Below are positions 1 through 55,309 of a stretch of 64,000 nt of DNA, one piece after another (position 1 is the first letter of the stretch; every line of letters begins with the position of its first letter). The position numbers and the translations under genes are program-made. The notes beneath the pieces were generated by a model. That model searched no databases. It had not been told where the DNA came from and saw only the letters and a list, made by a program, of their open reading frames with translations. The stretch comes from a virus (taxonomy: Duplodnaviria > Caudoviricetes): IMG/VR virus record IMGVR_UViG_3300037501_000111, positions 192,001-256,000 of that record, one strand, 5' to 3'.

Positions 1-119
1 AAATCAAAAAGAATGGACAAGTAGTATCAGATCCGGTACCAGAAGCAAATCAGCCACCTGTTGTTAGATCAAGTTTAGACCAGGTAACACCTGGTCAACG
101 TTTTAAGAGGAATCAATGA
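1..119 (+). CDS. 3' end of a hypothetical protein (5'-truncated by window edge)
   Basis: Frame starting at base 3 is open to TGA at 117-119, which overlaps the ATG of the next gene (ATGA). Confidence 0.45.
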   Translation, partial: IKKNGQVVSDPVPEANQPPVVRSSLDQVTPGQRFKRNQ

Positions 120-481
120 AAAAGACTAAGAGACTTACTCGTAGACAACTTAAGAACGCACAACAATTTTTGTCTGATTTAGATCAGCCAAAAAAGAGTC
201 GTAGAAATACAAAATTAGTGCATGCTCTAAAGAAACACCTAACTAGTGTAGTAGAGAAGACTGCTCTTAAAGTTGCTAAAGTTGAACCAATTTTTAGCTT
301 GGCAAACTATTTTGCTAAGAAAGCACAAAAGAGGCTAGAGAAACTTACTCAGCGCGAGGAAGATCGTCAAGCTAAGGCGGATAAGATTGCTGTCAGGGCC
401 AAGTTGAAGGCAGCCAAGAAAGCGGCCCGTGAAGCAAGAGAAGCTAAAAGAGCTGCTAGATTAGCTAGAGAACAAGAATAA
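116..481 (+). CDS. Lys/Arg/Ala-rich basic hypothetical protein (possible nucleic-acid-binding)
   Basis: 121-aa ORF, very basic, helical C-terminus (KAAKKAAREAREAKRAARLARE). Confidence 0.6.
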   Translation: MKKTKRLTRRQLKNAQQFLSDLDQPKKSRRNTKLVHALKKHLTSVVEKTALKVAKVEPIFSLANYFAKKAQKRLEKLTQREEDRQAKADKIAVRAKLKAAKKAAREAREAKRAARLAREQE

Positions 482-490
482 GGCGGTTAC

Positions 491-1357
491 ATGGCAGAGT
501 TGATTAAAGGAATTGATGTATCTGTTTACCAAGGCGATAATATCAATTGGAAAGCAGTCGCAGCGGCAGGTTACAAATTCGTTATTTGTCGTTGCGGTGT
601 AGGTAATGGTTCTAAAGATAAGAATTATGCAAAGAATATAGCTGGTGCTAAAGCCGTAGGACTTAAAGTGGCAGCTTACCATTTTGTTTATCCGCTTCCT
701 ACTATTCCAAATCAACCATTACGCGATCCAAAAGCGCAAGCTAAGTTACATGCTGATTGGGCAGGCAAAGATATTTTAGCTGCATGTGACTTGGAGTGGC
801 CTGAACCAGAAAATTGGAGCAAATGGGGTTGTACTGCTCAGCAAATAATTGATTGGACCGTAACTTATTTAGAAGAGTATGAAAGGCTAACTGGTATCCG
901 ACCAGTTGTTTATACTTATCCATACTTTGCTAAAGCTATTAATCTTCCAACATCATTTGCTCAGAAATGGCAGTTGTGGATTGCTAGCTATACGGCTAAT
1001 CCAACTATTCCTAAACCTTGGACTGACTGGCTGCTTTGGCAAGACTCTGGCGGTAAAACTACAAATTTACCTGGTGGTGGGCCTGTGGATACCAATAAAG
1101 CCCGCGATCTGTCATGGTGGGAAAATTTTGAAAAGCGCAATGCTACACCAGAACCACCTCCACCAGAGCCGGTGCCAGAACCAACTCCTACACCAGAACC
1201 ACCTCCACCAGAGCCGGTGCCAGAACCAACTCCTACTCCAGTAGTTCCACCGCTCCCGCCGCCTCCAGTTCAGCCTACTGGTAATTCAAATTTCTTTGTT
1301 GCTTTTATTCAGGAAGTGATCGATTTGTTGAAAAAAGTATTTAAATTCAAGAAGTAA
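491..1357 (+). CDS. GH25 muramidase (endolysin) with Pro-rich linker and amphipathic C-terminal helix
   Basis: GIDVSVYQG N-terminal motif, D-L-E catalytic-type motif, YTYPYF, LWIASY, LWQDS and VDTN motifs of GH25 lysozymes. Confidence 0.9.
   Translation: MAELIKGIDVSVYQGDNINWKAVAAAGYKFVICRCGVGNGSKDKNYAKNIAGAKAVGLKVAAYHFVYPLPTIPNQPLRDPKAQAKLHADWAGKDILAACDLEWPEPENWSKWGCTAQQIIDWTVTYLEEYERLTGIRPVVYTYPYFAKAINLPTSFAQKWQLWIASYTANPTIPKPWTDWLLWQDSGGKTTNLPGGGPVDTNKARDLSWWENFEKRNATPEPPPPEPVPEPTPTPEPPPPEPVPEPTPTPVVPPLPPPPVQPTGNSNFFVAFIQEVIDLLKKVFKFKK
1143..1240 (+). repeat. 45-bp in-frame tandem repeat (2 perfect copies plus partial) encoding TPEPPPPEPVPEPTP
   Basis: ctacaccagaaccacctccaccagagccggtgccagaaccaactc at 1143-1187 and 1188-1232. 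Confidence 0.95.
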
Positions 1358-28313: not shown

Positions 28314-30260
28314 TTAAGCTCCACTCGCAAGAAAGTTATACGGTAGTATAGCGCCATCCCATGGAAGACATATACCATTAACTAAATGAATAAACTCTCC
28401 ACGATCGCCAATCAGAAAGAATGGTGGTAATCCTCCAAATGTTACTCTATGTGGTCTCATTCTTGCTCTGGCAAAAGAAAATTGACCGGCAGCAGATGAA
28501 ACTGCCATTAGAGTTTCTCCAGTTATTACTTTTGCGATTTTATTTTGATATCCTAATTGTGTATTTAAATTAAAACCCACAGTATATGTTGGACCAATGG
28601 TAGCGTTAGCAGTATCACCAACAAGGTTTCTACTAATTAATTGATGAGATCTGGTTGTTCCATCAAACCCAACCATACCAAATGAAGTACAAAAAGAATC
28701 TGTGCCAGTACTATTATTCAAAGTATTCCCACCAGCTAATATAGCAATTAAATTTGGGTCTTGTGTTTGTGTGTATAGTCTAGCTGGCGTAGTTATCATA
28801 AAATAAAGACCAGTTGTATTGCCGCCATTTGTGGGAGATTTAACATGTCCGAAAAAGAAATCCGTGTCAGCAATGAAAGACACAAATCCCGAAACGGCTG
28901 ATGTGGTTCCAGTAAAATTAGTTGCTGAAATTCTTTCAGACATAGTGGTATTACTACCGCTCCCGGAAAATGATGTGCCATTCCAGCTACCATTTGGAGA
29001 TCCTATGTATCCCATTTGACCAAATGCGTTGGCAGATCCTCTTAATAGCATCTGAAATTGACTTACAGCAGCGCCCGGATTTATGTTAGGGGCGCCTGTA
29101 AAATTACCAATAAAATAGTTACCGTTACCTATACTTAATTGAGACGCGGCAATCACATCAAGAACTCGATAGCTGAGCGATGCTCTTGCGGTCAAATTAT
29201 TCTTCAATGAAGAAATGTCAGTCGTACCACCACTAAATGGTACAATTTTTATCTGGGTATTTGATGGTACTGCAACTATTCTGTAGATTGAATCATCTGT
29301 GCTTGGAGGATTAACTGATACAGATCCATTAGGTTGCATTAATCCAGTGCCTCCCGAACATCCAACAAATGTTTGTCCAGTTACAGCATTACCAGTTGTC
29401 ATAGTCCCAGTACCACCTGAACATCCTGTAAAGGTTGTTGCTGTTACTCCTGTGTAAGTAACGACTTGTGGCACATTGTTAGAAGTTACTACATTGATTA
29501 CCCCAGAGGTTGGAAATCCAGTTGTGCTAGCGACATTGATTGTGGCTTGCGGTAAGACTTGACCGTTTGAACCCGCAGCGATTGTAGTACTAAGTATACC
29601 AGTGTAATTTACTGTTTGTAAGCCGGTGCTACTTTGAACGAAAACAGAGCCGCTGGCTGGAAATCCAATAGTAGATTGAACATTTAAAGTAGATTGTGGT
29701 AAAGTGAAACCGGCAGATCCTGGCGCAATACCGCTTCTGGCCCCCGCCAACCAAACAACTATATGCTTACCAATCATAGATTGAGAAAATGGTTGAGAAG
29801 ATGCCGCTGTAAATGTATCTCCTAATGCAGATGTTACTCCATCATTACCTACAGCAAGCACGGATGAACCTTCAAAAAATCCACTAGGAGAAGAAGTTGG
29901 TGAAATTGGAATACCACCGGGAATAGTAACTTGGCCACCAGTAGTGTAATTTGCATTACCCACCGCTCCATTTAAAGCAAATTGCGTAGAATTAACTACA
30001 GTAACATTAAATCCACCATTTGCTGAAGTATTACCTTGAACCCCATAAACTCCAACTAGTTGGTTATTTGATAGTCCGTGCGGAGTAGATGTAGTTATAA
30101 CAATTGGATTTGTATTGGAAGCGGCAGTAACAGTTAAAATACTAGGGGCACCGTTTACGCAATACGCCCAAAAATTGTAGGCAAGGTTTAAAAAGATAGG
30201 GATATCCCTACCATTTGTACCTGTTGTATATTGTAGCCCTCTCAGAAATTTAATGGCCAT
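28314..30260 (-). CDS. fibre/decoration protein, scaffold family B (648 aa), nested T-modules plus 1 FCCH-like module
   Basis: Shares FLRGL, FW.YCVNG, SP.G.WNG, RLY.Q..D, GQFS..R.R, NGI..WD..ILP blocks with 34840. Confidence 0.75.
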   Translation of the reverse strand: MAIKFLRGLQYTTGTNGRDIPIFLNLAYNFWAYCVNGAPSILTVTAASNTNPIVITTSTPHGLSNNQLVGVYGVQGNTSANGGFNVTVVNSTQFALNGAVGNANYTTGGQVTIPGGIPISPTSSPSGFFEGSSVLAVGNDGVTSALGDTFTAASSQPFSQSMIGKHIVVWLAGARSGIAPGSAGFTLPQSTLNVQSTIGFPASGSVFVQSSTGLQTVNYTGILSTTIAAGSNGQVLPQATINVASTTGFPTSGVINVVTSNNVPQVVTYTGVTATTFTGCSGGTGTMTTGNAVTGQTFVGCSGGTGLMQPNGSVSVNPPSTDDSIYRIVAVPSNTQIKIVPFSGGTTDISSLKNNLTARASLSYRVLDVIAASQLSIGNGNYFIGNFTGAPNINPGAAVSQFQMLLRGSANAFGQMGYIGSPNGSWNGTSFSGSGSNTTMSERISATNFTGTTSAVSGFVSFIADTDFFFGHVKSPTNGGNTTGLYFMITTPARLYTQTQDPNLIAILAGGNTLNNSTGTDSFCTSFGMVGFDGTTRSHQLISRNLVGDTANATIGPTYTVGFNLNTQLGYQNKIAKVITGETLMAVSSAAGQFSFARARMRPHRVTFGGLPPFFLIGDRGEFIHLVNGICLPWDGAILPYNFLASGA

Positions 30261-30267
30261 AGTTACC

Positions 30268-32541
30268 TTAAACTAATATTGGTGGTCCGCCCCAAAACAT
30301 AAACATTCCTCGTCTAATATGCATAAATGCGCGAGAAGTATCATGAGTTAATGTATATTCTCCGAAATTAGCTCTTCCTTCTCTTATATGCGGGATAGTT
30401 CCTATAAATCTCGGTTCTTGTACTGGAAAAGATGTACCGCTCCAGCCAGTAAAAGTTCCAGCAATCACATCTACTGGGAATAATTCTGTACCGCCTAACC
30501 AAGGATTATCTCCAGCGCTGCCGTCAAAAATAGGGCTACCGGTTTGTCCAACTCCACTAACGTATGTTATTAGTGATACTGCTGCTGATACCGGAATTGG
30601 AGTAGTAGTAGATTTAGTTTCTTGCATATTTACTCCTTGAGCTAAATTACTAGCTCCTATGTTACCGGGATACCAGCTAGTGTCATTTAAAAAGTCTCCA
30701 TTTGAACTGCCCGAGCCGCTGCCAATTGTAAATAGCCTAGCTTCATTATTACTTGGTAATGGTAAAGGTTCTACTTCTGGTATTCCAAACGTAACCAGAA
30801 AAGATTTAGGAGTAGTACCATTACTTGGTCTACGCCCAATCATGGTCACACCAAGACCATAACCATCGTCTCCAATTATAGTATGTCTATAAGTAGTATT
30901 AAGTGTTTGAGGATCTCCGCATCCTATGGCTCCACCTGAATAAGTTCCACTATTGCTGTTGTAGTATAATGGAGTATGAAGATGCCTTCCGGCAACCAAA
31001 AAATCTCCTGCTGAATTACCATCAAATCCTGGTGACATTGTTATTGGTGGACAATTTGCCTGATCGGTATTTGTTTCATTACAAATTCTAATTTGCCATC
31101 CAGTGGTGTGTGGGCTTTGTAAAATTATTCTCGGTGTCGTGGAATCTCCATTCCCTCTATATTGACCTGCTGGATTCGTATTGTTAGCTCCATTTGTTGG
31201 AGCGTTAGCGTCGCTAGCATACAAGTACCAATTCATACTATCTGTTGGTTCAATAGGCGGTAAACTTGGTGAGAAAAATACTGCTCCACCGGTTGACATA
31301 GTGCCAGTTCCACCAGTACATCCTGTAAAGGTTGTCTCTGTTCTTCCAGTATAAGCTACTTGTTGAACACCAGCGCTAGTTGTTACGAACACATTTCCAG
31401 ATGGAGAAAACCCGGCAAATACGCTGCCACCAGTTGACATTAATCCGGTACCACCAGTACACCCAGTAAATGTAGTAGCGGTTGTGCCAGTATATGCAAC
31501 AGTCTGAGTACCAGCATTAGTCGTTACGAAAATAATTCCAGTAGTTGGGAATCCTGTAGTTGAGTCTACGTTAATAGTACCTGTTGGTAACCTAACGTTA
31601 TTAGATCCTGAGGCAATTGTAGTTGTGGCTGTTGTAGTAGACGCTACATTGATGGTAGTTTGTGGTAGAGTTTGTCCGTTGGATCCTGCTGCAATAGTTG
31701 TAGCAATACCAGCTACAATCGGAGATCCTCCTAATACGCTACCAGTACCACCCGTACAACCAGTGAACGTAGTTCCAGTTGTACCAGTATAGTTAACTGT
31801 TTGCCTTCCTGCTGGAGTACAGATAAAAATAGTTCCGCTTGTAGCAAATCCAGATGTTGTACTAACATTAAGGGTACCTGTAGGCAATGCAATACTAGCA
31901 GTTACTGAATTATTAGTTGACATGGTTCCAGTGCCACCGGTGCACCCTGTAAAGGTGGAGCTAGTAGTTCCGGTGTAGTTAACCGTTTGTATTCCGGCAT
32001 TTGTTGCAACTAAAATTGTGCCGGATGTTGGAAAACCTGAAGTAGAAGCAACGTTGATAGTACCAGTTGGTAGAGAAACGTTGTTAGAGGCAGCCGCAAT
32101 AACGGTCGTACCACTCAGAAAAATGCTAGTTCTATATGCAATACGATATGAATTTGTTCCTGTATCATACCCATCAATTAAAAAACAGCCAGAATTATAC
32201 GTAGGATTAGAGGTACTTCTTAAAACTAATAATCTACCAACATCTACTTGACTAACTACTCTAGTGCCAGCGGGAATAGATACAAAAAATTCTAAACCTG
32301 AAGCCAGATTAATACCAGCTTTTGTTCCACCAGCAAAAGAAGGTACCGCGGCCGTAGGAGTAGAATCTGCAGTGGCAACTAAAAGTGTGCCCACTGAATT
32401 TATATTGAAATTAGTATCTCCAACATATGTATATAGTAATACTCTTCGAAGAAATATCGCCATCAGATAAGATGGAATATAATTTCTAGCTGGAAACGAT
32501 ACATTTTGTATTAAATAGTCTCGTAATAAATGTCTAGCCAT
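30268..32541 (-). CDS. fibre/decoration protein, scaffold family A (757 aa), 4 T-modules
   Basis: Family A conserved blocks; T-module block inserted between AYRTS and LPPIEP. Confidence 0.75.
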   Translation of the reverse strand: MARHLLRDYLIQNVSFPARNYIPSYLMAIFLRRVLLYTYVGDTNFNINSVGTLLVATADSTPTAAVPSFAGGTKAGINLASGLEFFVSIPAGTRVVSQVDVGRLLVLRSTSNPTYNSGCFLIDGYDTGTNSYRIAYRTSIFLSGTTVIAAASNNVSLPTGTINVASTSGFPTSGTILVATNAGIQTVNYTGTTSSTFTGCTGGTGTMSTNNSVTASIALPTGTLNVSTTSGFATSGTIFICTPAGRQTVNYTGTTGTTFTGCTGGTGSVLGGSPIVAGIATTIAAGSNGQTLPQTTINVASTTTATTTIASGSNNVRLPTGTINVDSTTGFPTTGIIFVTTNAGTQTVAYTGTTATTFTGCTGGTGLMSTGGSVFAGFSPSGNVFVTTSAGVQQVAYTGRTETTFTGCTGGTGTMSTGGAVFFSPSLPPIEPTDSMNWYLYASDANAPTNGANNTNPAGQYRGNGDSTTPRIILQSPHTTGWQIRICNETNTDQANCPPITMSPGFDGNSAGDFLVAGRHLHTPLYYNSNSGTYSGGAIGCGDPQTLNTTYRHTIIGDDGYGLGVTMIGRRPSNGTTPKSFLVTFGIPEVEPLPLPSNNEARLFTIGSGSGSSNGDFLNDTSWYPGNIGASNLAQGVNMQETKSTTTPIPVSAAVSLITYVSGVGQTGSPIFDGSAGDNPWLGGTELFPVDVIAGTFTGWSGTSFPVQEPRFIGTIPHIREGRANFGEYTLTHDTSRAFMHIRRGMFMFWGGPPILV

Positions 32542-33076: not shown

Positions 33077-34830
33077 GGTATTACCTGTGGTCCATTCCAA
33101 GTCACATACACGCCTCGCTTCATGTGCATCCATGAATGTGAACTATCAGTAGTTACTGTAAAGTTACCAAAATTAGACCTTCCTGCTCTGAGATGTGGTA
33201 TTGTTCCTAATATTCTGGGTTCAATTGGAAATACGTTCTCAATTCCTGCATTTCCATTCCAGGTAGCAAATGTTCCTGCCAATAAATCTACCGAGAATAA
33301 TTCAGTAGATCCACTCCATGGACTATCTGCCGCAGAACCATCAAAAATAGGACTTCCAAATTGAGCTACTCCAGAAACATAAGTCCACAATGATGGAACG
33401 CAGCTACAAGGAACACCTCCCTGAGTTTGTGTTACTCCCTGACACCAGTTACCACGGTTTAAATCTCCAGAACTTCCCTGATACAAAATATTAGGAGACC
33501 AGCTTATATCGTTAAGAGAGTTGCCATATCCGCCGATACCACCAGTACTAATTCCGCTTCCGATCATAAATAATCTAGCTACATTATTCACTGGCAGTGG
33601 TGTTGGTTCATTTTCAGCTAAACCACAAGCAAAGAAATAATCTTGTGGTACGCTAATAAAACTTACTGCTGGGTTAAACTGTCTGCGGCCAAAAATAACT
33701 ACACCTTGTCCTGTGTCATCTCCGACAAGCGTTAATCTCCACGAGAATGGCCAGTAACTACTTGGTGTACCATTAACAGAAGAATCATCTCCAAATCCTG
33801 GTGCAGTTCCTGCAAATTTGGTTGTGTTATTTGTATTATAGTAAAGTGGTCCATGTAAGTGTGGGCCAGCTACAGCAAAATCTCCAGCAGAATTACCGCC
33901 AAAACCAGGCACACAAGTAATAGTGGGCACATTGCCATAATTACCGTTGCTATTAAAATTTTGACTATAATCAGCAAATGTTTCATGACATAGCCTAACT
34001 TGCCAGCCCAATGCATGAGGGCTTTGCATTATAATACGTGGGGTAGTAGAGTTTCCATATCCTCCGTACGTACCGCTATTTACAGCTACCCATGTACTGT
34101 TTGGAGATCCAGATGCTGGAGCAGCAGTGTCCTTTTCATAAATGTACCAATTCATGCTACCAAATGGTTCGACCGGTGGAAATCCGGTAGCACCCATTGT
34201 TCTATAGTCGATAATGTAGCAATTAGTTGTAACAGTACCTCCGCTTGTGTAGGTACCATTTCCAGTTGTTCCATTTAAAGTAAATTGAGTACTATTTAAT
34301 ACAGTAATTGTAAAAGTCCCGTTAGCTGCGGTATTACCACCAACTCCAGAAATGACAACAGTTTGCCCTGTAGTTAAAGTATGAGGGGTAGTAGTAGTAA
34401 TTTGAATTGGTGAAACGGCATTTCCTGAAGTAGTAGACACTGTATAGTTGAGCGCTTCAAATCCAGTGATAAGATAAATTCCTGAATTATATGTAGAATT
34501 AGCTGTGCTTCTTAGAACTAACAATCTACCAACATCAGTTAAACTTACTGTTCTAACCGATGGCGGTATCCAAACATAAAACTCTCTACCGGAACCCTGA
34601 TTAATCCCAGCTTTGGTGTTGGCTGGAAAAGTTGGCGTACCAGTTGGAGTAGTGTCGGCCGTAGCAATTAATAGTGTTCCGACAGCATTGATTGGGTAAT
34701 TAGTGTCACCAACATAACTATACAATAGTATTCTTCTCAGAAAAATACCCATCAGATAGCCACATATCCATTGCTTTGCATTAGTTGTTATGTTCTGAGT
34801 GAAATAATCTCGAACTGTGTGTATAGCCAT
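33073..34830 (-). CDS. fibre/decoration protein, scaffold family A (585 aa), 1 FCCH-like module
   Basis: Family A conserved blocks; closest to a bare scaffold. Confidence 0.75.
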   Translation of the reverse strand: MAIHTVRDYFTQNITTNAKQWICGYLMGIFLRRILLYSYVGDTNYPINAVGTLLIATADTTPTGTPTFPANTKAGINQGSGREFYVWIPPSVRTVSLTDVGRLLVLRSTANSTYNSGIYLITGFEALNYTVSTTSGNAVSPIQITTTTPHTLTTGQTVVISGVGGNTAANGTFTITVLNSTQFTLNGTTGNGTYTSGGTVTTNCYIIDYRTMGATGFPPVEPFGSMNWYIYEKDTAAPASGSPNSTWVAVNSGTYGGYGNSTTPRIIMQSPHALGWQVRLCHETFADYSQNFNSNGNYGNVPTITCVPGFGGNSAGDFAVAGPHLHGPLYYNTNNTTKFAGTAPGFGDDSSVNGTPSSYWPFSWRLTLVGDDTGQGVVIFGRRQFNPAVSFISVPQDYFFACGLAENEPTPLPVNNVARLFMIGSGISTGGIGGYGNSLNDISWSPNILYQGSSGDLNRGNWCQGVTQTQGGVPCSCVPSLWTYVSGVAQFGSPIFDGSAADSPWSGSTELFSVDLLAGTFATWNGNAGIENVFPIEPRILGTIPHLRAGRSNFGNFTVTTDSSHSWMHMKRGVYVTWNGPQVIP

Positions 34831-34839
34831 TCTGATTCC

Positions 34840-37800
34840 TTATATGATGAAGAACAAGTTTGATGGTAAGATTGTGTTATCCCAAATTATGGCAATACCA
34901 TTTTGTATATTAAGGAACTGTCCGCTTGGTGTACCAAATCTGTGATAGAGTGGTAGTTGCGTGCTTGTAAATTTTAGAGTTCTTAATCTTACTCTGCCCA
35001 ATGAAAATTGTCCTGTTACACCCGGCAAGCATAGTACACCATCTGAAGCTATTATAGTTCCTCGTGTTGTGTTGAATGCTAATTTAATGTCTGTAAGGTT
35101 AGCTCCAAAAGACGGCGAGCCATCTCCTGCTAAAGATTTAGATAACATTCGATGAACTCTAATAGTTCCAGTAGTATCTTTCATCCAAAAACCATTACCA
35201 ATAGTTCCGTTACCACCGGCAGATGTACCATCACATCTAAAAACAGTTCCATTGAATACTCCACCTCTTGTATTTACTATTACAGGATTTATATCCGCAG
35301 ATTGTGGATAAAGTCTGATTGGAATTTCACAGTGGAAATATGATGATCCATCTCCACTGTTTATATCTTTGTAATGCATCCAGAAGAATGCCGGATCAGC
35401 AGCCATTGTCATAGCCATAGTGTTAGCTGGGCCAGTGTTGAAGATATTTCCACTCAGTGTATTATTGAATTGTGCAGTTGCATCTATCTGCGGATCTCCA
35501 GTGACAGGAAATGTAAGGCCATTCCAATTTCCTCCTGGAGAAATAATAGTGCCAATGGTACCGGCAGTATCATTTCCAAACATTTGTACCTGGCTATTGG
35601 CTTGGCCAGGATTAATACCAACTGCTGATGGATTGAATTGCATAACCATATAGTTTCCGTTGCCGCTACTAAATGTTTGAGCAAGTCCAGCATCCACAAT
35701 TCTATAGTTGATATTTGTTCTATTAGTAAATGATGGGTGTAGATTTGTTGGATCGGGAGTGCCCCCAGTATTCAAATTGACTCTAATAGAGTTAGGACTA
35801 TTAACAGCAGTGATTATGTAGATAGCATCTTCAGTAGTTCCAGAATTTGGCTTCCACATTATTAACAGTTTTCCAACCATATTGCTGGTTGTAACTGTTT
35901 GTGTTCCACCACTGGTCCAAGATCCGTTTGGGGCAGAATTATTTAGGTATATACTATTACGATTGGCAATAGATCCTCCGCTTGTATATGTTCCTGATGC
36001 AAAAGATCCGTTTAATGTAGCAATTCTATTGCTAATTGCTGTGGTTAAAAATGTGCTATTAGCATTTGGCAAACCACCTATTCCAGATGTTATAACAGTC
36101 TGTCCAGTTAGTAATGTATGGAAATCGGAAGTGATAACAGTAATTGGCGACAGTATAGTATTTCCAGTAGTCATTGTACCGGTACCGCCCGAACAACCAG
36201 TGAAAGTATTATGAGTGGTTCCAGTATAGCTTACTGTTTGAACTCCGGCGCTACTTGTGATATTAAAAGATCCGCTTGAGGCATAGTTAATAGTCACTGG
36301 ATTGCCGGTTGACATGGTGCCAATACCGCCCGAACAACCAGTGAAAGTTGTGCCGGTCGTTCCAGTGTAAGTAACTGGTTGATATCCAAGAGTGGTTAAA
36401 ACATAAATGTATCCACTAGTTGGGAATCCTGTGGTAGACGCAACGTTAATAGTAGATTGTGGTAAGGCTTGTCCGTTAGAAGCAACAGCAATCGAAGTAT
36501 AGTTGCTTGCTGGAGAAAATGCCGTAAATACAGCACCGTCCGAGGAGGTATTTCCTGTACCACCAGAAGCCCCAGTTAATGTAGTGGCTGTTACTCCAGT
36601 ATATGTTACTAGTTGAGATCCGTTAGTAGTAGTAATATAAAGTGAGCCAGTAGTTGGGAAATTGGTAAAGAAACCAGTATTATTTACAGTATTACCAGTA
36701 AACATAGTTCCAACACCACCTAGTGCTCCAGTAAATGTAGTTGCTGTTGTGCCAGTATATGTAACAGCTTGATTAAATGGTCCACCACCGATTGGGTTAT
36801 TAATCAGTAAAGTACCAGTACCACCTGTTACACCAGTAAATGATGTAGCGGTAATTCCAGTATAAGTAACTGAGGTAGCTGCATAAACAGTGCCACCAGT
36901 TGACATGGTACCACCTCCGCCAGAACATCCAGTAAAGGTAGTAGCAGTGGTACCAGTATATGTAACTATCTGAGAACCAGTGCTGGTTGTTACAAAAATT
37001 GTACCAGAGGCTGCAAATCCAGTCGTAGACGCTACGTTGATAGTTCCTTGTGGTAGAGCTTGTCCGTTGGATCCTGCTGCAATAGTTGTTTGAATAGCGT
37101 TATCTGCTACACTTAGTGTGCCGCTGGTTGGAAATCCACTAGTAGTAGATACGTTAATAGTTGATTGTGGGAGTGATTGCCCGCTAGATCCAAGTGCAAT
37201 ACTTGTTACAACTATTGTTGCAACATTCAAAGTACCAGAGGTTGGGAATCCGGTAGTAGAGGCTACGTTAATTGTGCCTGTCGGCAGATTAACATTGTTA
37301 GAGGCAGCAGCTACAGTTGTAGAGGCAGTTGCGGTAGCAGCTACGTTAATAGTTGCTTGTGGGAGCGTTTGAACACCAGTTGTAGTTGTAAATGGTGCAA
37401 CAGTACTTGAGTTAACAGTTGCTTGTGGCAATGTGGCACCGTTTGATGGAAACGCCGTAGTAGTATTAAAATATGTTGCATTAGAAATAGAGTTAGTTGG
37501 TGTATTAATAGTCCACGTACCATTAGCTGTGGTATTTCCAGTTACTCCGCTTACAACAACTGATGCCAAGTTAACATAAGAATTTGCCGCGGTCATATTT
37601 ACTGAAATTGGAGCATACACAGCGCCATCAATAGACATAGTTCCTGTACCACCTGAACATCCTGTAAAGGTTGTTCCCGTAATTCCTGTATATGTAACTG
37701 TTTGTATACCAGCACTAGTGGTGACATGAATTGTTCCAGAACTTGGGAATCCGATAGAAATAGATCCGCCAGTTTGCATAGATCCTCGACCTAAAGTACA

Positions 37801-38613
37801 TCCGGTAAACGTAGTTGCAGTTATACCGGTGTACAAAACTAACTGGGTGCCCTCTGTTGTCTGCACATTTAGAAATCCACCTGATGGAAATCCTGTTGTG
37901 GAGGCTACGTTAATAGTGCCAGTTGGCAGAGAAACATTGTTAGAGGCAGCAGCGATAGTTGTGCTAGCGGTAGTTGTGGAGGCAACATTGATTGTTGCTT
38001 GAGGTAAACTTTGTCCGTTAGATCCTGCTGCGATTGTAGTTCTGTAATTAGAAACATTATTAATAGTAAAGCTAGTGTTTAAATTAGTAAAAGGATTAAT
38101 ATTTGTGGCATTAAAAATAGCATTGCCATTAACGTTGGTACTTATTTGAGCTGGAGTATATCCATCATTGCCAATTGCTAAAACAGGAGTTCCTTCAGTA
38201 AAGTTAACTGGCCAAGCGAATGGTGTAGTGTTAACAGTTCCACCACCAGTATATGAACCATTTCCAGTTGATCCATTTAAACTAAATGTAGTTGTGCTTG
38301 TGACAGTAATTTGGAAGGTACCATTGGCCGCTAAATTACCGAGCACGCCAGAAATTGTAACTTGTTGTCCAGTAAATAAAGCATTAGTTGTGGTAGTGGT
38401 TATTACAATTGGAGAAACGCCAGCTCCCGTAGTGTTTGATACGGAATAGGTTGTGCTCATAGTGGTTGCAAATCCGCCTGGAGATTGAAGGCTAGAAGTA
38501 CCATTAACGCAATATCCCCAGAACTCGTAGAGTATTTTAAGGAACTCGGAAGCTCTTCCAGTTTGGTTATAGTTGTAAAGTAGTCCTCGACAGAACCTTA
38601 GTGAAGTTGGCAT
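34840..38613 (-). CDS. fibre/decoration protein, scaffold family B (1257 aa), 8 T-modules plus 3 FCCH-like modules, deeply nested
   Basis: Family B conserved blocks at both ends; Thr/Gly-rich repeats in the centre. Confidence 0.78.
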   Translation of the reverse strand: MPTSLRFCRGLLYNYNQTGRASEFLKILYEFWGYCVNGTSSLQSPGGFATTMSTTYSVSNTTGAGVSPIVITTTTTNALFTGQQVTISGVLGNLAANGTFQITVTSTTTFSLNGSTGNGSYTGGGTVNTTPFAWPVNFTEGTPVLAIGNDGYTPAQISTNVNGNAIFNATNINPFTNLNTSFTINNVSNYRTTIAAGSNGQSLPQATINVASTTTASTTIAAASNNVSLPTGTINVASTTGFPSGGFLNVQTTEGTQLVLYTGITATTFTGCTLGRGSMQTGGSISIGFPSSGTIHVTTSAGIQTVTYTGITGTTFTGCSGGTGTMSIDGAVYAPISVNMTAANSYVNLASVVVSGVTGNTTANGTWTINTPTNSISNATYFNTTTAFPSNGATLPQATVNSSTVAPFTTTTGVQTLPQATINVAATATASTTVAAASNNVNLPTGTINVASTTGFPTSGTLNVATIVVTSIALGSSGQSLPQSTINVSTTSGFPTSGTLSVADNAIQTTIAAGSNGQALPQGTINVASTTGFAASGTIFVTTSTGSQIVTYTGTTATTFTGCSGGGGTMSTGGTVYAATSVTYTGITATSFTGVTGGTGTLLINNPIGGGPFNQAVTYTGTTATTFTGALGGVGTMFTGNTVNNTGFFTNFPTTGSLYITTTNGSQLVTYTGVTATTLTGASGGTGNTSSDGAVFTAFSPASNYTSIAVASNGQALPQSTINVASTTGFPTSGYIYVLTTLGYQPVTYTGTTGTTFTGCSGGIGTMSTGNPVTINYASSGSFNITSSAGVQTVSYTGTTHNTFTGCSGGTGTMTTGNTILSPITVITSDFHTLLTGQTVITSGIGGLPNANSTFLTTAISNRIATLNGSFASGTYTSGGSIANRNSIYLNNSAPNGSWTSGGTQTVTTSNMVGKLLIMWKPNSGTTEDAIYIITAVNSPNSIRVNLNTGGTPDPTNLHPSFTNRTNINYRIVDAGLAQTFSSGNGNYMVMQFNPSAVGINPGQANSQVQMFGNDTAGTIGTIISPGGNWNGLTFPVTGDPQIDATAQFNNTLSGNIFNTGPANTMAMTMAADPAFFWMHYKDINSGDGSSYFHCEIPIRLYPQSADINPVIVNTRGGVFNGTVFRCDGTSAGGNGTIGNGFWMKDTTGTIRVHRMLSKSLAGDGSPSFGANLTDIKLAFNTTRGTIIASDGVLCLPGVTGQFSLGRVRLRTLKFTSTQLPLYHRFGTPSGQFLNIQNGIAIIWDNTILPSNLFFII

Positions 38614-38652
38614 TTATTCTCCGTTTAACCAAAATGTCGTATTATTAGGTGT

Positions 38653-39612
38653 TTATGCAAACCAAGTATCTATCACTTCAGGAGTAGAATATGGGCCTGA
38701 GCACGGGAAAGCTGGTGCATTTGCTAAAGAAATTTGCGTATCAACCCAAACAACCGGAGTAGGAGTGACGCAGGATGTATCATAAGCTCTCAATTTGTAA
38801 TATTGAACGGCGCTAGTAACTGTGATTGGTAGTGCTCCAACTTTATAAATCAACTTAAAATAGTCTAATGTTCTTTCTACGTTGGCCACTCTAATATCTT
38901 GAATAAGAATATTTGGCTCTTCTTTGTTAGATGAGCCAGTTGCAGTAATAGCTCCAGTTCTCCAGAAACCAAATCCGTTAATACCATCTGTATAAGATAT
39001 TGAGGCTGCCGGAAATGTATTAAGCTGAACACCAGCCGAATATCTAATACATTGAATGCCATTTAAATAAGCTCTTACAGATGTTCCATCGTAAGACATT
39101 CCTATATGAGACCATTGTTGTAATGGAATTGGAAAATCTGTAACGTTAAATGAAGCATTTGTAGAAGAATTTAAAGCGAGTTCTGCTCCCCAATCTTGAC
39201 CACCATTAGATGTAAACGTGGATAAATTAATAGCCTGAAATGGTGCTGCCCAACTTGATGTAATTGTACTATCTCTGTATTCTTTAGCAACTATTGTTGT
39301 ATTATTAGAAGTGGTGTAAGATTTTAAATATATCCAACAAGAAAGAGAAATTGGAGGGCTTGGATTTATCGTTCTAGCTCCAGCGGCATAATTTCTAGTT
39401 GCAGAAGCTCCTGTTGGGTAATTTCCTGTGCTAGGAAATTGTGCACAAGGATCATCGAATACGCCCGTACCAGTTCTTACTATCGTATTGGTAATGTTTA
39501 AATCTGTAGTAGTATCATTAGGAGATAGAGAGCCCGAATTTCTATAAGGCCCCGAAGTTTCATTCAACCTCCATACTAAAATATCATTTACATCAGGTGG
39601 TATTCTGGCCAT
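38653..39612 (-). CDS. LamG/concanavalin A-like lectin-domain protein with YYK..W tail
   Basis: VWRLNE, SLSCWIY, QWSHIGMSYDGTSVRAYLNG, IQDIRV. Confidence 0.8.
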   Translation of the reverse strand: MARIPPDVNDILVWRLNETSGPYRNSGSLSPNDTTTDLNITNTIVRTGTGVFDDPCAQFPSTGNYPTGASATRNYAAGARTINPSPPISLSCWIYLKSYTTSNNTTIVAKEYRDSTITSSWAAPFQAINLSTFTSNGGQDWGAELALNSSTNASFNVTDFPIPLQQWSHIGMSYDGTSVRAYLNGIQCIRYSAGVQLNTFPAASISYTDGINGFGFWRTGAITATGSSNKEEPNILIQDIRVANVERTLDYFKLIYKVGALPITVTSAVQYYKLRAYDTSCVTPTPVVWVDTQISLANAPAFPCSGPYSTPEVIDTWFA

Positions 39613-39615
39613 ATG

Positions 39616-40557
39616 TTAAAATCCTAGTTTTGTCCAAGAGCCTACAATTTCTATTGGCCCAAGATTGCCGCCACATGGAGCAGGAGGTGCTCCGTTATAG
39701 TTTATTCCTGTAGAAATCCAATAAACAGGATTTGAAGTAGCACAATTAGTGTCATATGCTCTTAACTTATAATACCTAGTTAAAGGGCTTGTCCCTGTAC
39801 CAGGAGATAATACTCCATTTCTATATATATTCTGGAAATATGATTGTGGTCTAACTATATTCGCAATTCTAAAATCACAAATTGAAACAACTGGCTCTTC
39901 TGGATTTCCAGACCCCGATGGAATAGCTCCAAAAAACCATGGTCCTGGCGTGGATCCATAATTAATAGGCCCAGTTGAGGTAGCGGTAGCTACAACGTTT
40001 CCGTTTATATAAGCTATTTGCGTAGTACCATCCCAAGTCACCGCAGTGTGAGTCCAAGCATGAAGAGGAACTGTACTCTCTGCTGATACTAATGGAGTTC
40101 CACCTGATGTTGGTAAAACAAATAAATCCCACTGCTGAGATTGGCCAGCATATGTTCTATTTTGTAGTTCGACAGAAGCAAATGTACTGGACCAGTTCCC
40201 AGTATTAGTTTGTTTGACCCATAAATGTTGTGTGAATCCTGTTGTATTATATGCTCGCAAATATACCCAACAAGAAAATGAAACTGGTGCTTGCGGCATA
40301 ACACTATTAGCTCCAGAAATAAAATTTCGAGGACTGCTACTGTTGGCACCAGTAAACATGATACAACTATTAGCACCAGAAGCTGCAAATAAGCTTGGTT
40401 GCTGTAATAATATTGTTCCAGATAGAGTAGATAAATCGGAAATGGCATGTGACGGGGCGGAAGGAGACGTAGATGAATTTACGAACGGAGCGCCAGCTTC
40501 GTCTAATCTCCACACAACAATATCATTATCATCTGGTGCTATTCTTGTTCCTGACAT
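39616..40557 (-). CDS. LamG/concanavalin A-like lectin-domain protein with YYK..W tail
   Basis: VWRLDE, SFSCWVY, WTHTAVTWDGTTQIAYING. Confidence 0.8.
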   Translation of the reverse strand: MSGTRIAPDDNDIVVWRLDEAGAPFVNSSTSPSAPSHAISDLSTLSGTILLQQPSLFAASGANSCIMFTGANSSSPRNFISGANSVMPQAPVSFSCWVYLRAYNTTGFTQHLWVKQTNTGNWSSTFASVELQNRTYAGQSQQWDLFVLPTSGGTPLVSAESTVPLHAWTHTAVTWDGTTQIAYINGNVVATATSTGPINYGSTPGPWFFGAIPSGSGNPEEPVVSICDFRIANIVRPQSYFQNIYRNGVLSPGTGTSPLTRYYKLRAYDTNCATSNPVYWISTGINYNGAPPAPCGGNLGPIEIVGSWTKLGF

Positions 40558-40566
40558 TAGTTTTCC

Positions 40567-41289
40567 TTATGGTACCGTTCCGCCAAAATATACATCAGCA
40601 AAATAAGATTGTGGTCTAACAATATTGGCCAGCCTAACATCCTGTACCATTATATTTCCTCCGTCTAATGACGTCGTGTCTGGAATAGTTCCTATGAACC
40701 ATTTACCTGGATTTGAACTATTATCAACCGCTCCTCCCCCAGGGACTAATGTTCCCACTAAAGTACCATTTAGATAAGCTCTAAGTGTAGTACCATCCCA
40801 AGTTTCCCCAATATGAACCCATCTACCTTGTGGTATAAGATTTGGAGAATTAATAGCCAATTCTCTTAAAGTGCCGCTGGTAGTAACGTAAGCAATCCAT
40901 CTTCCATCAGAAGTATTTCTAATGTATAAACCACATGTCAAAAATGGAAAAGCCCAGGAATTAGCAATGTACTGCTTAGTAAAAACGGAACCAAAATTAC
41001 TAGCGTATCTTCTAACATAAACCCAAGCAGAGATTGAAAAATTGGTTGGAACGGTAACTCCATATGCTCCACCAGTGCCATCGTGATTAGGAGAGATGCT
41101 TTGCCCAGGTATATAAACCCCTTTGAAATCTTCATCTATCTTAATAATTCCAGGTACTTCGGTAAGCATGTTTCCATAATCTACAAGATCGCCAATCGAT
41201 CCTAATGTTCCTAAATTTGGACGATTAGGACCTTTCTCGTTAAGTGGATATACTAGGATATCATTTGCATCAGGCGCTACTCTAGCCAT
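40567..41289 (-). CDS. LamG/concanavalin A-like lectin-domain protein
   Basis: FSISAWVY, WVHIGETWDGTTLRAYLNG, VQDVRL. Confidence 0.8.
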   Translation of the reverse strand: MARVAPDANDILVYPLNEKGPNRPNLGTLGSIGDLVDYGNMLTEVPGIIKIDEDFKGVYIPGQSISPNHDGTGGAYGVTVPTNFSISAWVYVRRYASNFGSVFTKQYIANSWAFPFLTCGLYIRNTSDGRWIAYVTTSGTLRELAINSPNLIPQGRWVHIGETWDGTTLRAYLNGTLVGTLVPGGGAVDNSSNPGKWFIGTIPDTTSLDGGNIMVQDVRLANIVRPQSYFADVYFGGTVP

Positions 41290-46230: not shown

Positions 46231-49200
46231 ATGGCAATACAGTACTATATGCGAGCCTACAATACGACTTTGTCCCAATATGTGGAATGGGTCGTAAATG
46301 ACGCGCCAGACAGTATAGGAACATTTTCTGGTTACCCAACAAACCAGTTAGTTAACATTATTGTCAACAGAATAGTACAGTCAAAAGTTGAGAATTTTCT
46401 AAAACCAAATCAATCACTTGGTGGCACTGATGGCCTTTTCTTTCACGTCAATAGCTATGACTGGAGAAATGCAGTTACCCCGATTCCTCCACCAACTGGA
46501 TTGACTGGATTTCAAATTGAACGAGGCGTAAACTTTATTGCCAGCATTACCGCGGCCTCTAACGCTTCGCCAATCAATATTACTACAGCCACTAACCATG
46601 GTTTGGTAACTGGTCAAATTGTAACTATTAATGGTGTTACTGGAAATGTAGCCGCTAATGGTAGCTGGCCAATTACTGTTCTTGGGCCAACTAATTTTAC
46701 ACTGAATGGTTCTGTAGGTAGTGGAGCCTCTTCTCCGGGCGGAAATGTTTTTACCCCAAGAGATATGTCATCTCTTATTTGGGACGAAACCAACGCTTTA
46801 TGGCGCTTCGTTTTTAACACCAATGGTGATGGTACTTCTCTTGGAGCATCGCAATCCTTAGTTGTAAATAACTTATTTGTTGATGGATTTTTAGCTCTAG
46901 GAATAGATCCTGCCGACACTGGTATTATCAGAATTCCTAATAATCAATATATTTTCTCAGAATCTAATCCAACCGGTATCGATATTCAATTAATCGGTGC
47001 TGACTTATTTAATAGGGTAAAACTTGGTAGTACAGTTACTGATATTGTTTATACTCCTGGTGTAATGGTAGTAGATGGATATGTTCAACATGATGGCACC
47101 AGCGATAACGTTGCAGCTTCAACTGGATTTATCCGTGAACTAAACAATACAAACATTGTTGCTTTCAAGAATGTTAACCAAGCATTTACTGATATCGTTG
47201 CACTAGGGTCTAATACATTCAATAATGTTATTATTGGTGATACGGTTAACACTGGAACCATTCACAATACAGCTAGTGGTACATTTAGCATTACTGCCGC
47301 TACTGCCGCAAACCCTGTTCAAATTACAGTATCTACTCCAACTACATTTGTAACTGGACAAAGCGTTACGATTAATGGTATCACTGGTACTATTGGTACT
47401 GACCCAACTAACGGATTGAATGGAAAAACATTCTCGATTGTAGTACTAAATACTACTCAGTTTACCCTAACTGGCTCTAACGGTACTGGTTTAGCCTATA
47501 CCAGTGGTGGCACAGTTACAACTAATAACGTTCACTCATTTCAAGTTGGCGGAAACACTCAAGTAGAAATTGGTGCACCATTCGTTAGATTTCCGTCATC
47601 TATAATTGCTCCGTTTATTTTACAATCTACAGCAGCAGTATCTACCAGTGGTCAAAATATGACCATTCAGTCACAGAATGCTGGATTGGGTGGCAGCAAT
47701 GGTGGTAATTTAACACTTACTACTGGTACTGGAACTACTAACGGTCTTATCAATTTGCAAACTGGTGGAGTAACTAGAGTTACCTTGAGTGATACTACTG
47801 AAACTCATATTCATCAGACAATTACTTTTGCTAACACTATTGCAAATCCAATTATTACTCAGGATACGACTTCTTCTGCCGCAGGTACTACACTAACTGT
47901 ACAAGCGCAAGCAACTTCATTAGCAGCTTCTGCTGGAGGAAATTTAGCACTAAGTTCTGGTATTGGTACATCACAATCTGGAAACGTCTTCATTCAGACT
48001 GGCGGAACAACACAGATCGTTGTATCGCCATTGACTATCGCACCAAGTGATTCTACCTTTGGTCCACCGACCACAGGCACTGTTATTATTAAAGGTAACT
48101 TAGAAGTTCAAGGGTCGATGACTACCGTAGAAAGTACGGTTGTTGATATTATTGGTAGAGTAATTCATGCTAATTGGGCTGATCCAATAAGTTCACCAAA
48201 CATATCGCCTTCTACACAGATAACTGGCTATAGTATCCATCGTGGTAATTTTGGAAGCGGTATTCCTCGTGATGGTAGCGCCTGGATTTGGACTGAGAAT
48301 CCAGATGGTTATTCGCATGCTGGCGCAGATGGATATTGGAGAGCAGTGACCATTCCTGGTGATGGTATTGGCACTGACAATTTTACAATTGCCAACTCTT
48401 TAAATATTGTTGGAGTTATGGGTAATGATTTTGCTGCTAGTTCTGATCCAAATCCTCTATCAGGATATTTGGCTGGTACCGGCAGTTTAAGAACCGCTAA
48501 TAACGTACCTGTAGCTGTTTCAAGAAACCTAACTGCAAGTACAACTGTTGCTGCCGCGTCTAATTTAACTACATTACCTCAAGCAACAATTAACGTAGTA
48601 TCTACGACCGGATTCACCAGTTCTGGTACGCTATTAATTCTATCTTCTACTGGTGTTCAAACGGTAACATACACTGGCACAACTGGAACAAGTTTTACCG
48701 GTGCAACTGGTGGTACAGGTCAAATTATTACTGGAAGTATTGTTGGACAAACTAATAGATCAACTACATTTAATGGAACTAACGGCACTACACTACCAAC
48801 AGCTACAATTACTGTAGCTTCCACTACCGGTTTCCCAGCTTCTGGAACTCTGCGTGTAGTAAGTCGTACTAGCAATAACTCTATTTCTCCACCAAGTGTA
48901 CAAGTAATTACTTACACTGGTACAACCGCTACTACATTTACTGGATGTTCTGGTGGTACGGGGTTCTTGTTTATTGGCGATTCTGTCACCAGCGTTCCAC
49001 CAGTTGGAACTCAAGATTTAGTTTTGTTAGGAACTGATTTTGGTAATCGCATCCTACACGGGTCTCCAAATAGTAATACTGGCCATATCTTCGATACACC
49101 AACTGGATTTTTCTATGACTTCCAGATTAATAGTATCTCTCAACTACAGGTTAGAGGCGATCTTGATTCGGATAGCTTTACCAGAACTTTAACAATTGCT

Positions 49201-54265: not shown

Positions 54266-55309
54266 TCATTTAATGATAACATCGTGGGGATGAGATTCTC
54301 TCAATCCAGCGCTGGTTATCCTAATAAATGTCGGATTATCCTTAAGTTCTTCTAAATTATGAGATCCTTGATATGAGCAACCAGACTGTAATCCTTCAAT
54401 AAGTTTAGTCATTATGTTCTGGAACGTGCCCTTATAGGGAACCAAAGCGGCCACACCTTCAACGTGATTAGTCTTGTGCGTCGAGCTGCCAACATATTCT
54501 TTGTAGATAACCTTATCAATCTCTACACGGCGACCTGGTGCTTCTTCACATCCTGCAAACAGGTTGCCGATCATTACCATATCAGCAAAGCATAAAGCTT
54601 TTACAATATCACCAGCACTCTTAATGCCACCATCGGAGATGAAGCGAAATTGTCGTTTCTTTTCATTAGGATAACGCTTAGTGCGCTCTAATTCATTTAA
54701 CTGTCGTTGTACTTCTGCTACGTCTGAAAGGGCCGTAAACTGTGGAACACCATTACCAGTCTCTATTCTAGTAGTACATAAACTACCTGGACCTACACCC
54801 ACTTTTACTACATCTGCACCGGCTTCCCATAATCTGCGGGCACCTTCCCCTGTAGCTACATTACCGGAAATAACAAACATGTCTGGATACGTGTTCTTAA
54901 TCCAATTAGTCATTTCAACACACATCTTAGAGTCTCCGTGTGCTACATCAATGCAGACTATCCGAATACCAGCATTTCTAAAATGAGCAACCATTTCCTT
55001 ATCAGATAACTTTACACCAACAGATACAGCGAAGTTTTCATTACCATGATTATCCACCATATAGTTAGCTAATCGTAGTTGTTCTTTATCTTCCATGAAA
55101 CGGTGTAAAATAGCTAGGCCACCACTTTTGATAATCTTGACAGCCATTTCTTCACCGATAACCGTTTTCATGTTGGCTGGAATAATTGGATGCGCAAAAT
55201 GTAAACATCCCCATTTCACCGAAACATCTACGTCTTTTGAGCGACTCTCTACGTCGGAATGTTGGGGAACTAAAAGCACATCGTCAAATGTCAGACCTTC
55301 ACGAATCAT
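54266..55309 (-). CDS. IMP dehydrogenase/GMP reductase family enzyme lacking CBS domains
   Basis: GLTFDDVLLVP, PANM, DVAHGDS, GNVAT, catalytic loop GVGPGSLCTTR, DGGI, EG..VPYKG; GGAGG RBS. Confidence 0.9.
   Translation of the reverse strand: MIREGLTFDDVLLVPQHSDVESRSKDVDVSVKWGCLHFAHPIIPANMKTVIGEEMAVKIIKSGGLAILHRFMEDKEQLRLANYMVDNHGNENFAVSVGVKLSDKEMVAHFRNAGIRIVCIDVAHGDSKMCVEMTNWIKNTYPDMFVISGNVATGEGARRLWEAGADVVKVGVGPGSLCTTRIETGNGVPQFTALSDVAEVQRQLNELERTKRYPNEKKRQFRFISDGGIKSAGDIVKALCFADMVMIGNLFAGCEEAPGRRVEIDKVIYKEYVGSSTHKTNHVEGVAALVPYKGTFQNIMTKLIEGLQSGCSYQGSHNLEELKDNPTFIRITSAGLRESHPHDVIIK

Follow-up and report, generated by a model that had tools for sequence, protein, structure and literature searches.

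A probable tail-fibre-type protein of an uncultured freshwater jumbo phage is predicted to carry a tree of recursively nested small beta-barrels

Introduction

What kind of fold results when the repeats of a protein do not follow one another in tandem, but open and close like parentheses? This question is raised by P0001, a protein of 1257 amino acids (aa) encoded on the minus strand of a 64,000-nucleotide stretch of viral DNA (IMG/VR virus record IMGVR_UViG_3300037501_000111, positions 192,001 to 256,000; hereafter the window, to which all nucleotide coordinates refer). The source of the window is an uncultured freshwater jumbo phage with a large genome. The contig carrying P0001 is up to 359 kb long, contigs with orthologues reach 490-498 kb, and the public runs that contain the P0001 stretch are freshwater metagenomes only. 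An initial annotation, made from the sequence alone, had read P0001 as domains inserted into copies of themselves, about seven levels deep. We find it likely that P0001 consists of a scaffold like that of gp47, a tail-fibre-forming protein of phage JBD30, one loop of which bears a tree of ten grafted and nested barrels, each closed in cis.

Results

The repeats of P0001 form balanced brackets

P0001 belongs to a row of five adjacent genes on the minus strand (P0004, P0003, P0002, P0005 and P0001; 25762-38613), to which two kinds of ~70-residue modules, T and FCCH, are common; Pfam identifies only one of the two kinds in this array, as E1_FCCH. We mapped both with hidden Markov models (HMMs), the T HMM (72 positions) being built from seven uninterrupted T copies in the window and the FCCH HMM from contiguous FCCH copies. 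The entire nested tree occupies 35887..38076. Its parts are listed below in the order of the protein, with residues of P0001, the HMM match in brackets and, where available, the independent E-value (iE); 'model' positions are those of the AlphaFold2 (AF2) prediction, in which residue 196 is aa 371, and were matched with VIA-align.

34840..38613 (-): P0001 gene; 1257 aa, scaffold family B
38224..38451 (-): contiguous FCCH-like barrel in a separate scaffold loop; aa 55-130 (complete; own HMM 2e-34; PF16190 29.5 bits, equal to the cut-off)
38050..38076 (-): outer FCCH, strand b0; aa 180-188 (AF2 strand E5-13; assigned because its motif resembles that of the contiguous copies, undetected by the HMM)
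37972..38043 (-): T o1, N-half; aa 191-214 (HMM 3-26; iE 2.8e-11)
37753..37971 (-): T i1, complete, inside o1; aa 215-287 (215-286 = HMM 1-72; iE 2e-37; matches model 40..112)
37615..37752 (-): T o1, C-half; aa 288-333 (HMM 27-72; iE 2.8e-20)
37498..37614 (-): outer FCCH, strands b1-b3; aa 334-372 (330-374 = HMM 9-52; iE 7e-9)
37474..37497 (-): inner FCCH, strand b0; aa 373-380 (UBA1 FCCH alignment starts at model 196, i.e. aa 371, and ends at 710)
37399..37467 (-): T a, N-half; aa 383-405 (383-411 = HMM 3-31; weak, iE 0.002; barrel matches at model 207..649 = a+a')
37330..37389 (-): T b, N-half; aa 409-428 (415-428 = HMM 13-26; weak, iE 0.002; barrel matches at model 229..525 = b+b')
37213..37329 (-): T c, N-half; aa 429-467 (429-466 = HMM 1-38; iE 1.8e-17; listed low-error contacts all to c')
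37099..37212 (-): T d, N-half; aa 468-505 (469-505 = HMM 3-39; iE 1.5e-13; listed low-error contacts all to d')
36883..37098 (-): T e, complete, innermost; aa 506-577 (507-577 = HMM 2-72; iE 2e-36; matches model 329..406)
36784..36882 (-): T d', C-half; aa 578-610 (581-608 = HMM 44-71; HMM and split-chain contacts)
36679..36783 (-): T c', C-half; aa 611-645 (615-643 = HMM 43-71; HMM, VIA-align at model 253..472, split-chain contacts)
36523..36678 (-): T b', C-half; aa 646-697 (650-695 = HMM 26-71; HMM and VIA-align)
36292..36507 (-): T f, complete, second insert of a, in the loop that also takes b; aa 703-774 (704-774 = HMM 2-72; iE 4e-38; matches model 524..601)
36151..36291 (-): T a', C-half; aa 775-821 (774-820 = HMM 25-71; HMM and VIA-align)
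35959..36150 (-): inner FCCH, strands b1-b5; aa 822-885 (813-883 = HMM 5-74; iE 1.3e-13; Z 10.3 to UBA1 FCCH)
35887..35958 (-): outer FCCH, strands b4-b5; aa 886-909 (888-907 = HMM 56-75; iE 0.004; AF2 strands E712-716 and E730-734)

The T matches balance as brackets, a( b( c( d( e ) d') c') b') f a'). Each C-half begins where the mirrored N-half ends, with break-point pairs of 24/25, 26/26, 38/43 and 39/44. When an N-half is joined to its mirrored C-half the product fits the T profile without internal gaps; b alone is short of about 11 N-terminal positions. The order a-b-c-d-e-d'-c'-b'-f-a' read in the initial annotation is thus matched by the HMM coordinates and by the complementary break points. 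Since parts of the FCCH HMM flank the inner FCCH copy, the outer FCCH module is split by the inner one at about positions 53-55, the b3-b4 turn, and the T nest in turn parts the first strand of the inner FCCH from its remaining strands. The earlier reading of one FCCH-like module within another, with the T block in the inner one, agrees with these HMM parts and with the alignment of UBA1 to model residues 196..710; the second T-in-T pair that it had placed in the outer FCCH is found at residues 191-333 (37615..38043). The approximately seven levels of that reading correspond to the series outer FCCH > inner FCCH > a > b > c > d > e.

Single-level nests had also been proposed in two paralogues, and the T HMM finds both:

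28314..30260 (-): P0003, paralogue, scaffold family B; T split at HMM position ~52 by a second T
30268..32541 (-): P0002, paralogue, scaffold family A; a tandem pair of T modules, followed by a T that another T interrupts at HMM position 26

The inserts at T position 26 (P0001 191-333 and 409-467; P0002 278-424) belong to an 'ASNNV.LPTG' subtype, whereas the corresponding position of their hosts reads 'LPQ', within SNGQ.LPQ in two of three cases. At the sequence level a ready-made T-in-T cassette is suggested, which may have been copied among paralogues and not built independently each time.

Two structure predictors pair the distant halves

If the brackets describe the fold, each N-half should be found with its distant, mirrored C-half and not with adjacent sequence. 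An AF2 model of P0001 aa 176-925, based on an alignment of 24 orthologues, had a mean predicted local distance difference test score (pLDDT) of 81.2 and a predicted template modelling score (pTM) of 0.59. We compared this model to 48,161 chains of the PDB with VIA-align, and single domains matched with approximately 65-77 aligned residues across very long ranges of the model. The FCCH domain of UBA1 aligned to residues 196..710 (74 aligned residues, root-mean-square deviation (rmsd) 1.7, Z 10.3), which corresponds to the inner FCCH (strand 196-205 plus 646-710). Six-stranded barrels, the HerA N-domain and a phage R4C baseplate protein, aligned to 207..649 (a+a'), the domain-II barrels of eRF3/Hbs1 to 229..525 (b+b'), and other barrels to 253..472 (c+c'). 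Contiguous matches were obtained at 329..406, 524..601 and 40..112, which are the complete copies e, f and i1. The distant halves are therefore predicted to sit together, because compact domains of ~70 residues could not otherwise align to such ranges.

Assignment of secondary structure with DSSP found the full set of six strands in every split module of the AF2 model. The c>d>e junctions are crossed by long continuous strands, both outward (285-297 and 323-336) and on the return (400-409 and 432-444); in the model, the insert therefore extends the b3-b4 hairpin of its host. This bears on the proposal that the module's termini lie close together, with which the model is in agreement: the first and last strands of an inserted barrel run on from the host hairpin as long strands. 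The sites of T insertion (HMM positions ~26, ~39-43 and ~52) fall in loops or at hairpin turns; by our count, T has three loops that permit insertion and FCCH has two. The single nest of P0003 was predicted with higher global scores (AF2, 83 sequences; pLDDT 86.4, pTM 0.87), with an outer T (173..319) enclosing an inner T (222..296) and both lying within a scaffold domain (129..375).

A second predictor, ESMFold2, was given the two sides of the stack as separate chains, an N-stack (aa 429-505, cN+dN) and a C-stack (aa 578-645, d'+c'). The two chains were predicted to associate with an ipSAE of 0.78, compared to 0.00 for the best control, with a partner pLDDT of at least 93 and 99% agreement between runs. 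The mark used for ipSAE is met by 58 of 80 solved complexes and by 2 of 110 mismatched pairs, counts that are rough here, own alignments having been used. All of the 40 lowest-error contacts were mirrored, 34 between cN and c', 6 between dN and d', and none crossed. Thus, two different predictors place the host halves in one fold around the insert, and the pairing of halves with distant mirrored partners, and not with adjacent sequence, is obtained from both the AF2 model with VIA-align and the split-chain contacts. The initial annotation had named structure prediction of this pairing as a possible refutation, and the outcome speaks for nesting.

The brackets exceed chance and recur in independent assemblies

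Complementary break points extend well beyond P0001. In a set of 327 proteins with T modules, the break points were complementary in 174 of 224 stack-matched N/C pairs; 2000 shuffles yielded a mean of 64 and a maximum of 88. Across the family the break points cluster at HMM positions 25-27, 37-41 and 51-54 and, less often, at 29-32, and these clusters correspond to loops or turns in the models.

Misassembly, which had been named as a concern for this region, was not seen in any of three comparisons. Logan contigs of two freshwater runs, which may be the source samples, reproduce 34700-38700 with 0 differences; the T modules of the five-gene array share only 60-75% DNA identity, so that assemblers could hardly confuse them; and the architecture is kept in 24 P0001 orthologues (52-87% identity) from JGI, ENA, NCBI and Logan samples. 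Judged by this degree of DNA identity (60-75%), the T modules of the array are old. Regarding the origin of the nest, the sequences are compatible both with insertion of whole modules and with two partial tandem duplications.

Levels are gained and lost as whole modules in relatives

The initial annotation had proposed that related phages would differ in nesting depth, and they do. A T depth of 5, like that of P0001, is found in the orthologues P0007-10, 12, 14-18 and 21, while the depth is 4 in others such as P0011 and P0013, in which level d/e is missing, and 3 in P0030. In some orthologues (e.g. P0009, P0010, P0012, P0016 and P0018), f is itself interrupted at position 26 by one more T. Throughout, the two halves of a level are either both present or both missing.

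The orthologues of P0003 (P0260-P0332) fall into discrete length classes that correspond to stepwise additions at fixed loops:

~430 aa: bare scaffold
~505 aa: scaffold plus FCCH
~575 aa: in addition, one contiguous T (HMM 2-72)
~650 aa: that T broken after 'YTG' by a single gap-free insertion of 72 columns, which is a second complete T

Since the T is contiguous in the ~575-aa class, the split halves of P0003 are one module.

A profile search of 1.84 billion representatives found T modules in 2278 proteins at E ≤ 0.001, and the N-F-C architecture is common in this wider family. The T barrel is a previously unnamed domain family of ~72 residues without a Pfam model.

The scaffold resembles JBD30 gp47

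The C-terminal 350 aa of P0001 are 32% identical to its paralogue P0003 (E 2e-45), and the AF2 model of P0003 aligns to chain c of 8rk3, the JBD30 baseplate (Z 17.4, 259/317 residues, rmsd 3.9). We take chain c to be gp47 because the supplement of the JBD30 paper gives gp47 as 317/318 residues. The lateral fibres of JBD30 consist of repeated gp47/gp48 heterodimers, and gp47 is tail-fibre-forming (PMC11445458). Through the homology of its scaffold to P0003 (E 2e-45) the gp47-type fold extends to P0001, and by these models P0001 is probably a tail-fibre-type structural protein in which the conserved N- and C-terminal parts form a gp47-type scaffold. The nest loop directly precedes a strand 'MVGKLLIMW', and the T pair of P0003 lies in the loop directly after the equivalent strand. 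With a profile of bare scaffolds we found no PDB chain at E ≤ 10, and the scaffold has no Pfam or PHROG match.

JBD30 gp47 is a protein of the baseplate/fibre region encoded beside a paralogous partner; P0001/P0003 likewise have paralogous neighbours and probably belong to the same region. Unlike P0001, gp47 is not described with barrel decorations of this kind. JBD30 pairs gp47 with the structurally similar gp48, and the window carries two scaffold families, A (P0004, P0002 and P0005) and B (P0003 and P0001). Profile-profile comparison of families A and B detected no relation (probability 0.4%), and an A/B heterodimer similar to gp47/gp48 therefore stays speculation.

The nest lies in a block of large structural-looking genes

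The left part of the window contains phage-type replication and nucleotide-metabolism genes, and 25.7-51 kb is a block of large, structural-looking genes. T and/or FCCH barrels sit in differing loops across the five scaffold proteins of the array, none of which had a match in PHROGs. Neighbouring features are:

38653-41289 (-): three consecutive Laminin_G_3 (ConA-like lectin) genes, directly upstream of P0001
42785-45733 (+): giant open reading frame (ORF) of 982 aa, in opposite orientation; one T and no FCCH
46231-50898 (+): giant ORF of 1555 aa, in opposite orientation; two T and two FCCH
54266-55309 (-): IMPDH/GMP-reductase family gene (PF00478, E 1e-91; phrog_9582), adjoining the structural block

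Every T and FCCH copy of the two giant ORFs is contiguous, and the 982-aa ORF also has a sub-threshold match to the ice-binding beta-roll PF21300 (27.3 bits versus a cut-off of 30). The arrangement of the Laminin_G_3 trio is also kept in a 498-kb relative (L001), in which the gene cluster is syntenic. DNA and protein searches of GenBank phages found no match to the locus, the T module or the bare scaffold, although a low-complexity filter may have hidden T.

Comparison with known nested and accessory barrels

The closest described precedent is the Si3 insertion of the beta' subunit of cyanobacterial and plastid RNA polymerase, in which four of eight sandwich-barrel hybrid motifs (SBHMs; SBHM-2 to -5) are built from distant segments (PMC10895346). 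This nest has been called a 'six-level recursive insertion architecture' and, of the examples that a 2026 survey of 2.7 million domains names, is the deepest (PMC13114784). In both Si3 and P0001 several of the repeated small beta domains are built from distant parts of a chain that runs out and back, which gives an elongated appendage in Si3 and would do so in P0001. The two differ in setting, an enzyme trigger loop versus a putative virion fibre, and in number, seven inserted levels in P0001 compared to six in Si3. Unlike Si3, P0001 combines two barrel types (FCCH-like and T) that have no detectable sequence relation to SBHM, its depth is polymorphic in close orthologues (T depth 3-5), and several genes of one operon share its modules. 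Pfam found neither an SBHM match nor RNA polymerase domains. A Foldseek search with the whole 750-residue nest model gave no significant match; its top matches were Si3 structures (9dvs_F and 8emb_B; E 0.01, probability 0.05, TM < 0.1). The P0001 nest equals or exceeds in depth the deepest nesting on record, that of Si3. As deep domain nesting has been described for Si3, the principle is not new, and P0001 is an extreme instance in a new setting.

The FCCH-like barrels resemble the FCCH domain of E1 enzymes (PF16190); both the contiguous and the inner split barrel align to UBA1/UBA6 (Z about 10-11.4, rmsd 1.7-2.0, 74-77 residues, 18-26% identity). PF16190 scores are 51.2 bits for P0004, 38.7 for P0005, 29.5 for P0001 (equal to the cut-off) and 23.3, below it, for P0003. 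Unlike the E1 enzymes, which have adenylation/catalytic domains, P0001 carries FCCH as a free-standing decoration barrel that is both host and insert, and in a Pfam scan all five proteins of the array lacked ThiF/E1 domains.

Similar small accessory or insertion barrels occur in proteins for host recognition, namely phi92 endosialidase (4hiz), lambda gpJ (8iyk), the tail tip of phage Chi (8vjh) and Klebsiella depolymerases (7w1c/7vul). The FCCH or T barrels match such tailspike and tail-tip barrels with Z 5.5-8.9, that is, in general fold only, and in contrast to P0001 these are single insertions or tandem domains and non-recursive. Structural neighbours of the barrels in the ESM Atlas are adaptor, wedge and nozzle proteins.

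NHL/PknD propeller blades ('Pizza' designs) were considered for T positions 5-46 and rejected: the per-blade iE is about 1-3, the whole-protein E of 4e-7 for 'Pizza' is inflated by its six identical designed blades, and the models are closed barrels. The likeness could hint at a shared ancestral beta-hairpin motif.

Discussion

The architecture that we propose for P0001 is a tree of ten small six-stranded beta-barrels in a single scaffold loop, each of which would be inserted in a loop or hairpin turn of its predecessor. The outer FCCH-like barrel would hold two inserts, the T pair o1>i1 and a second, inner FCCH-like barrel. The inner FCCH-like barrel would hold T a, and the inserts of T a would be T f and, as a linear series, T b > T c > T d > T e. 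Because the first and last strands of a barrel are neighbours, an insert merely lengthens the hairpin of its host. The chain would run outward on one flank of the stack and return on the opposite flank, so that each joint would consist of two strands and not of one linker. Joints of two antiparallel strands should make the stack more rigid, and harder to unfold, than a string of beads, and since the chain returns to its point of departure, the scaffold that is built into the virion would be undisturbed. We infer that the nest is a stiff, double-tethered protrusion whose reach and valency could be tuned level by level. Of the 'branched or telescoping fibre' first envisaged, the branching stands, in the form of a tree with three leaves (i1, e and f); 'fibre' is imprecise, as the nest would be a side protrusion in a loop of a gp47-like scaffold and not a shaft. 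By analogy to other accessory barrels of phage tails, the likeliest function of the barrels would be adhesion to host-surface polymers, probably glycan.

The same brackets could in principle be closed differently. The nest might be completed in trans, with N-halves of one subunit meeting C-halves of another (3D domain swapping) in an oligomeric fibre. That the N- and C-stack are predicted to assemble confidently as separate chains makes trans complementation physically plausible, and the JBD30 fibres are repeated gp47/gp48 heterodimers (PMC11445458). However, all barrels of the monomer models are closed in cis, at good pLDDT, and junction linkers of 0-5 residues together with continuous out-and-back strands favour a hairpin-like closure in cis; the insertions and deletions in orthologues do not discriminate, since both halves would be lost together under either model. 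On balance, we regard closure in trans as unlikely. It is also conceivable that the halves are independent N-type and C-type sub-repeats, arranged as separate tandem arrays in a fibrous beta-structure without any distant pairing. An N-N-C-C order is obtainable from two partial tandem duplications, the sequence is rich in Thr, Gly and Ser, and the first 42 residues of the T profile are weakly like NHL/PknD-type propeller blades, although not significantly so for any single repeat. But independent sub-repeats would not account for the balanced numbers of N- and C-halves in P0001 orthologues, for break types that are mirrored (about 26, 26, 39, 39 / 44, 43, 26, 25), for a family-wide complementarity far above that of shuffles, or for the occurrence of the same module in contiguous form in the ~575-aa P0003 orthologues; moreover, both predictors make closed barrels of distant halves. 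We therefore consider this arrangement very unlikely.

An artefact appears hardly credible, whether through misassembly of a repetitive region or because the gene is decaying into a pseudogene. Repeat-rich genes are error-prone in assembly, and the two matching runs may be source samples, but the frame is intact across 1257 codons, an independent assembler gives 4 kb with 0 differences over modules of 60-75% DNA identity, and the same brackets recur in the 24 orthologues (52-87% identity; JGI, ENA, NCBI and Logan).

Several considerations weigh against the cis-closed tree on a gp47-type scaffold that we favour. The structural evidence consists wholly of predictions, and in the AF2 model the pairing of halves was deduced from aligned length versus spanned range, not from coordinates. 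As any N-half may complement any C-half, the predictors could have completed barrels by homology, and phage fibres are often intertwined oligomers, which monomer predictions miss. The pTM of 0.59 makes the geometry between barrels, and thus stiffness and overall shape, uncertain. The N-halves of a and b are weak HMM matches (iE 0.002), b being short of about 11 N-terminal positions. The scaffold is tied to gp47 through its fold, at 10% identity, and both the place of P0001 in the virion and its adhesive role are putative.

How singular is the nest? Our literature searches turned up no account of nested insertions in phage fibres or of 'matryoshka' domains in phages. The earlier statement that no virion protein with nesting this deep has been described stands to that extent; the principle itself is known from Si3 (PMC10895346; PMC13114784). 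On a broader reading, no natural protein known so far would have deeper recursive nesting than P0001 (seven inserted levels, or eight if the scaffold host is counted), which would also be the first case in a virion protein, and the tuning of a host-binding protrusion in reach and valency through its depth would be a general mechanism by which jumbo-phage fibres evolve; it also includes the unnamed ~72-residue barrel family (~2,300 representatives) with three permissive insertion loops. We hold this broader reading tentatively, and think it somewhat short of evenly balanced.

P0001 provides an independent natural case of deep nesting of small beta-barrels, beyond Si3 of RNA polymerase. Its orthologues and paralogues span 0 to 7 levels at three defined loops, and thus constitute a natural series for the study of folding order, mechanical stability and tolerance of insertions. 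A compact barrel that accepts copies of itself is also a potential scaffold for protein engineering, and the T barrel, as an unannotated family, merits a profile in public libraries. For the phages themselves, the architecture suggests a route to vary fibre decorations, and perhaps host range, while the part that is built into the virion is left untouched. If it is correct, the variation in depth among close relatives means that these phages would tune the protrusion by adding or removing whole barrels.

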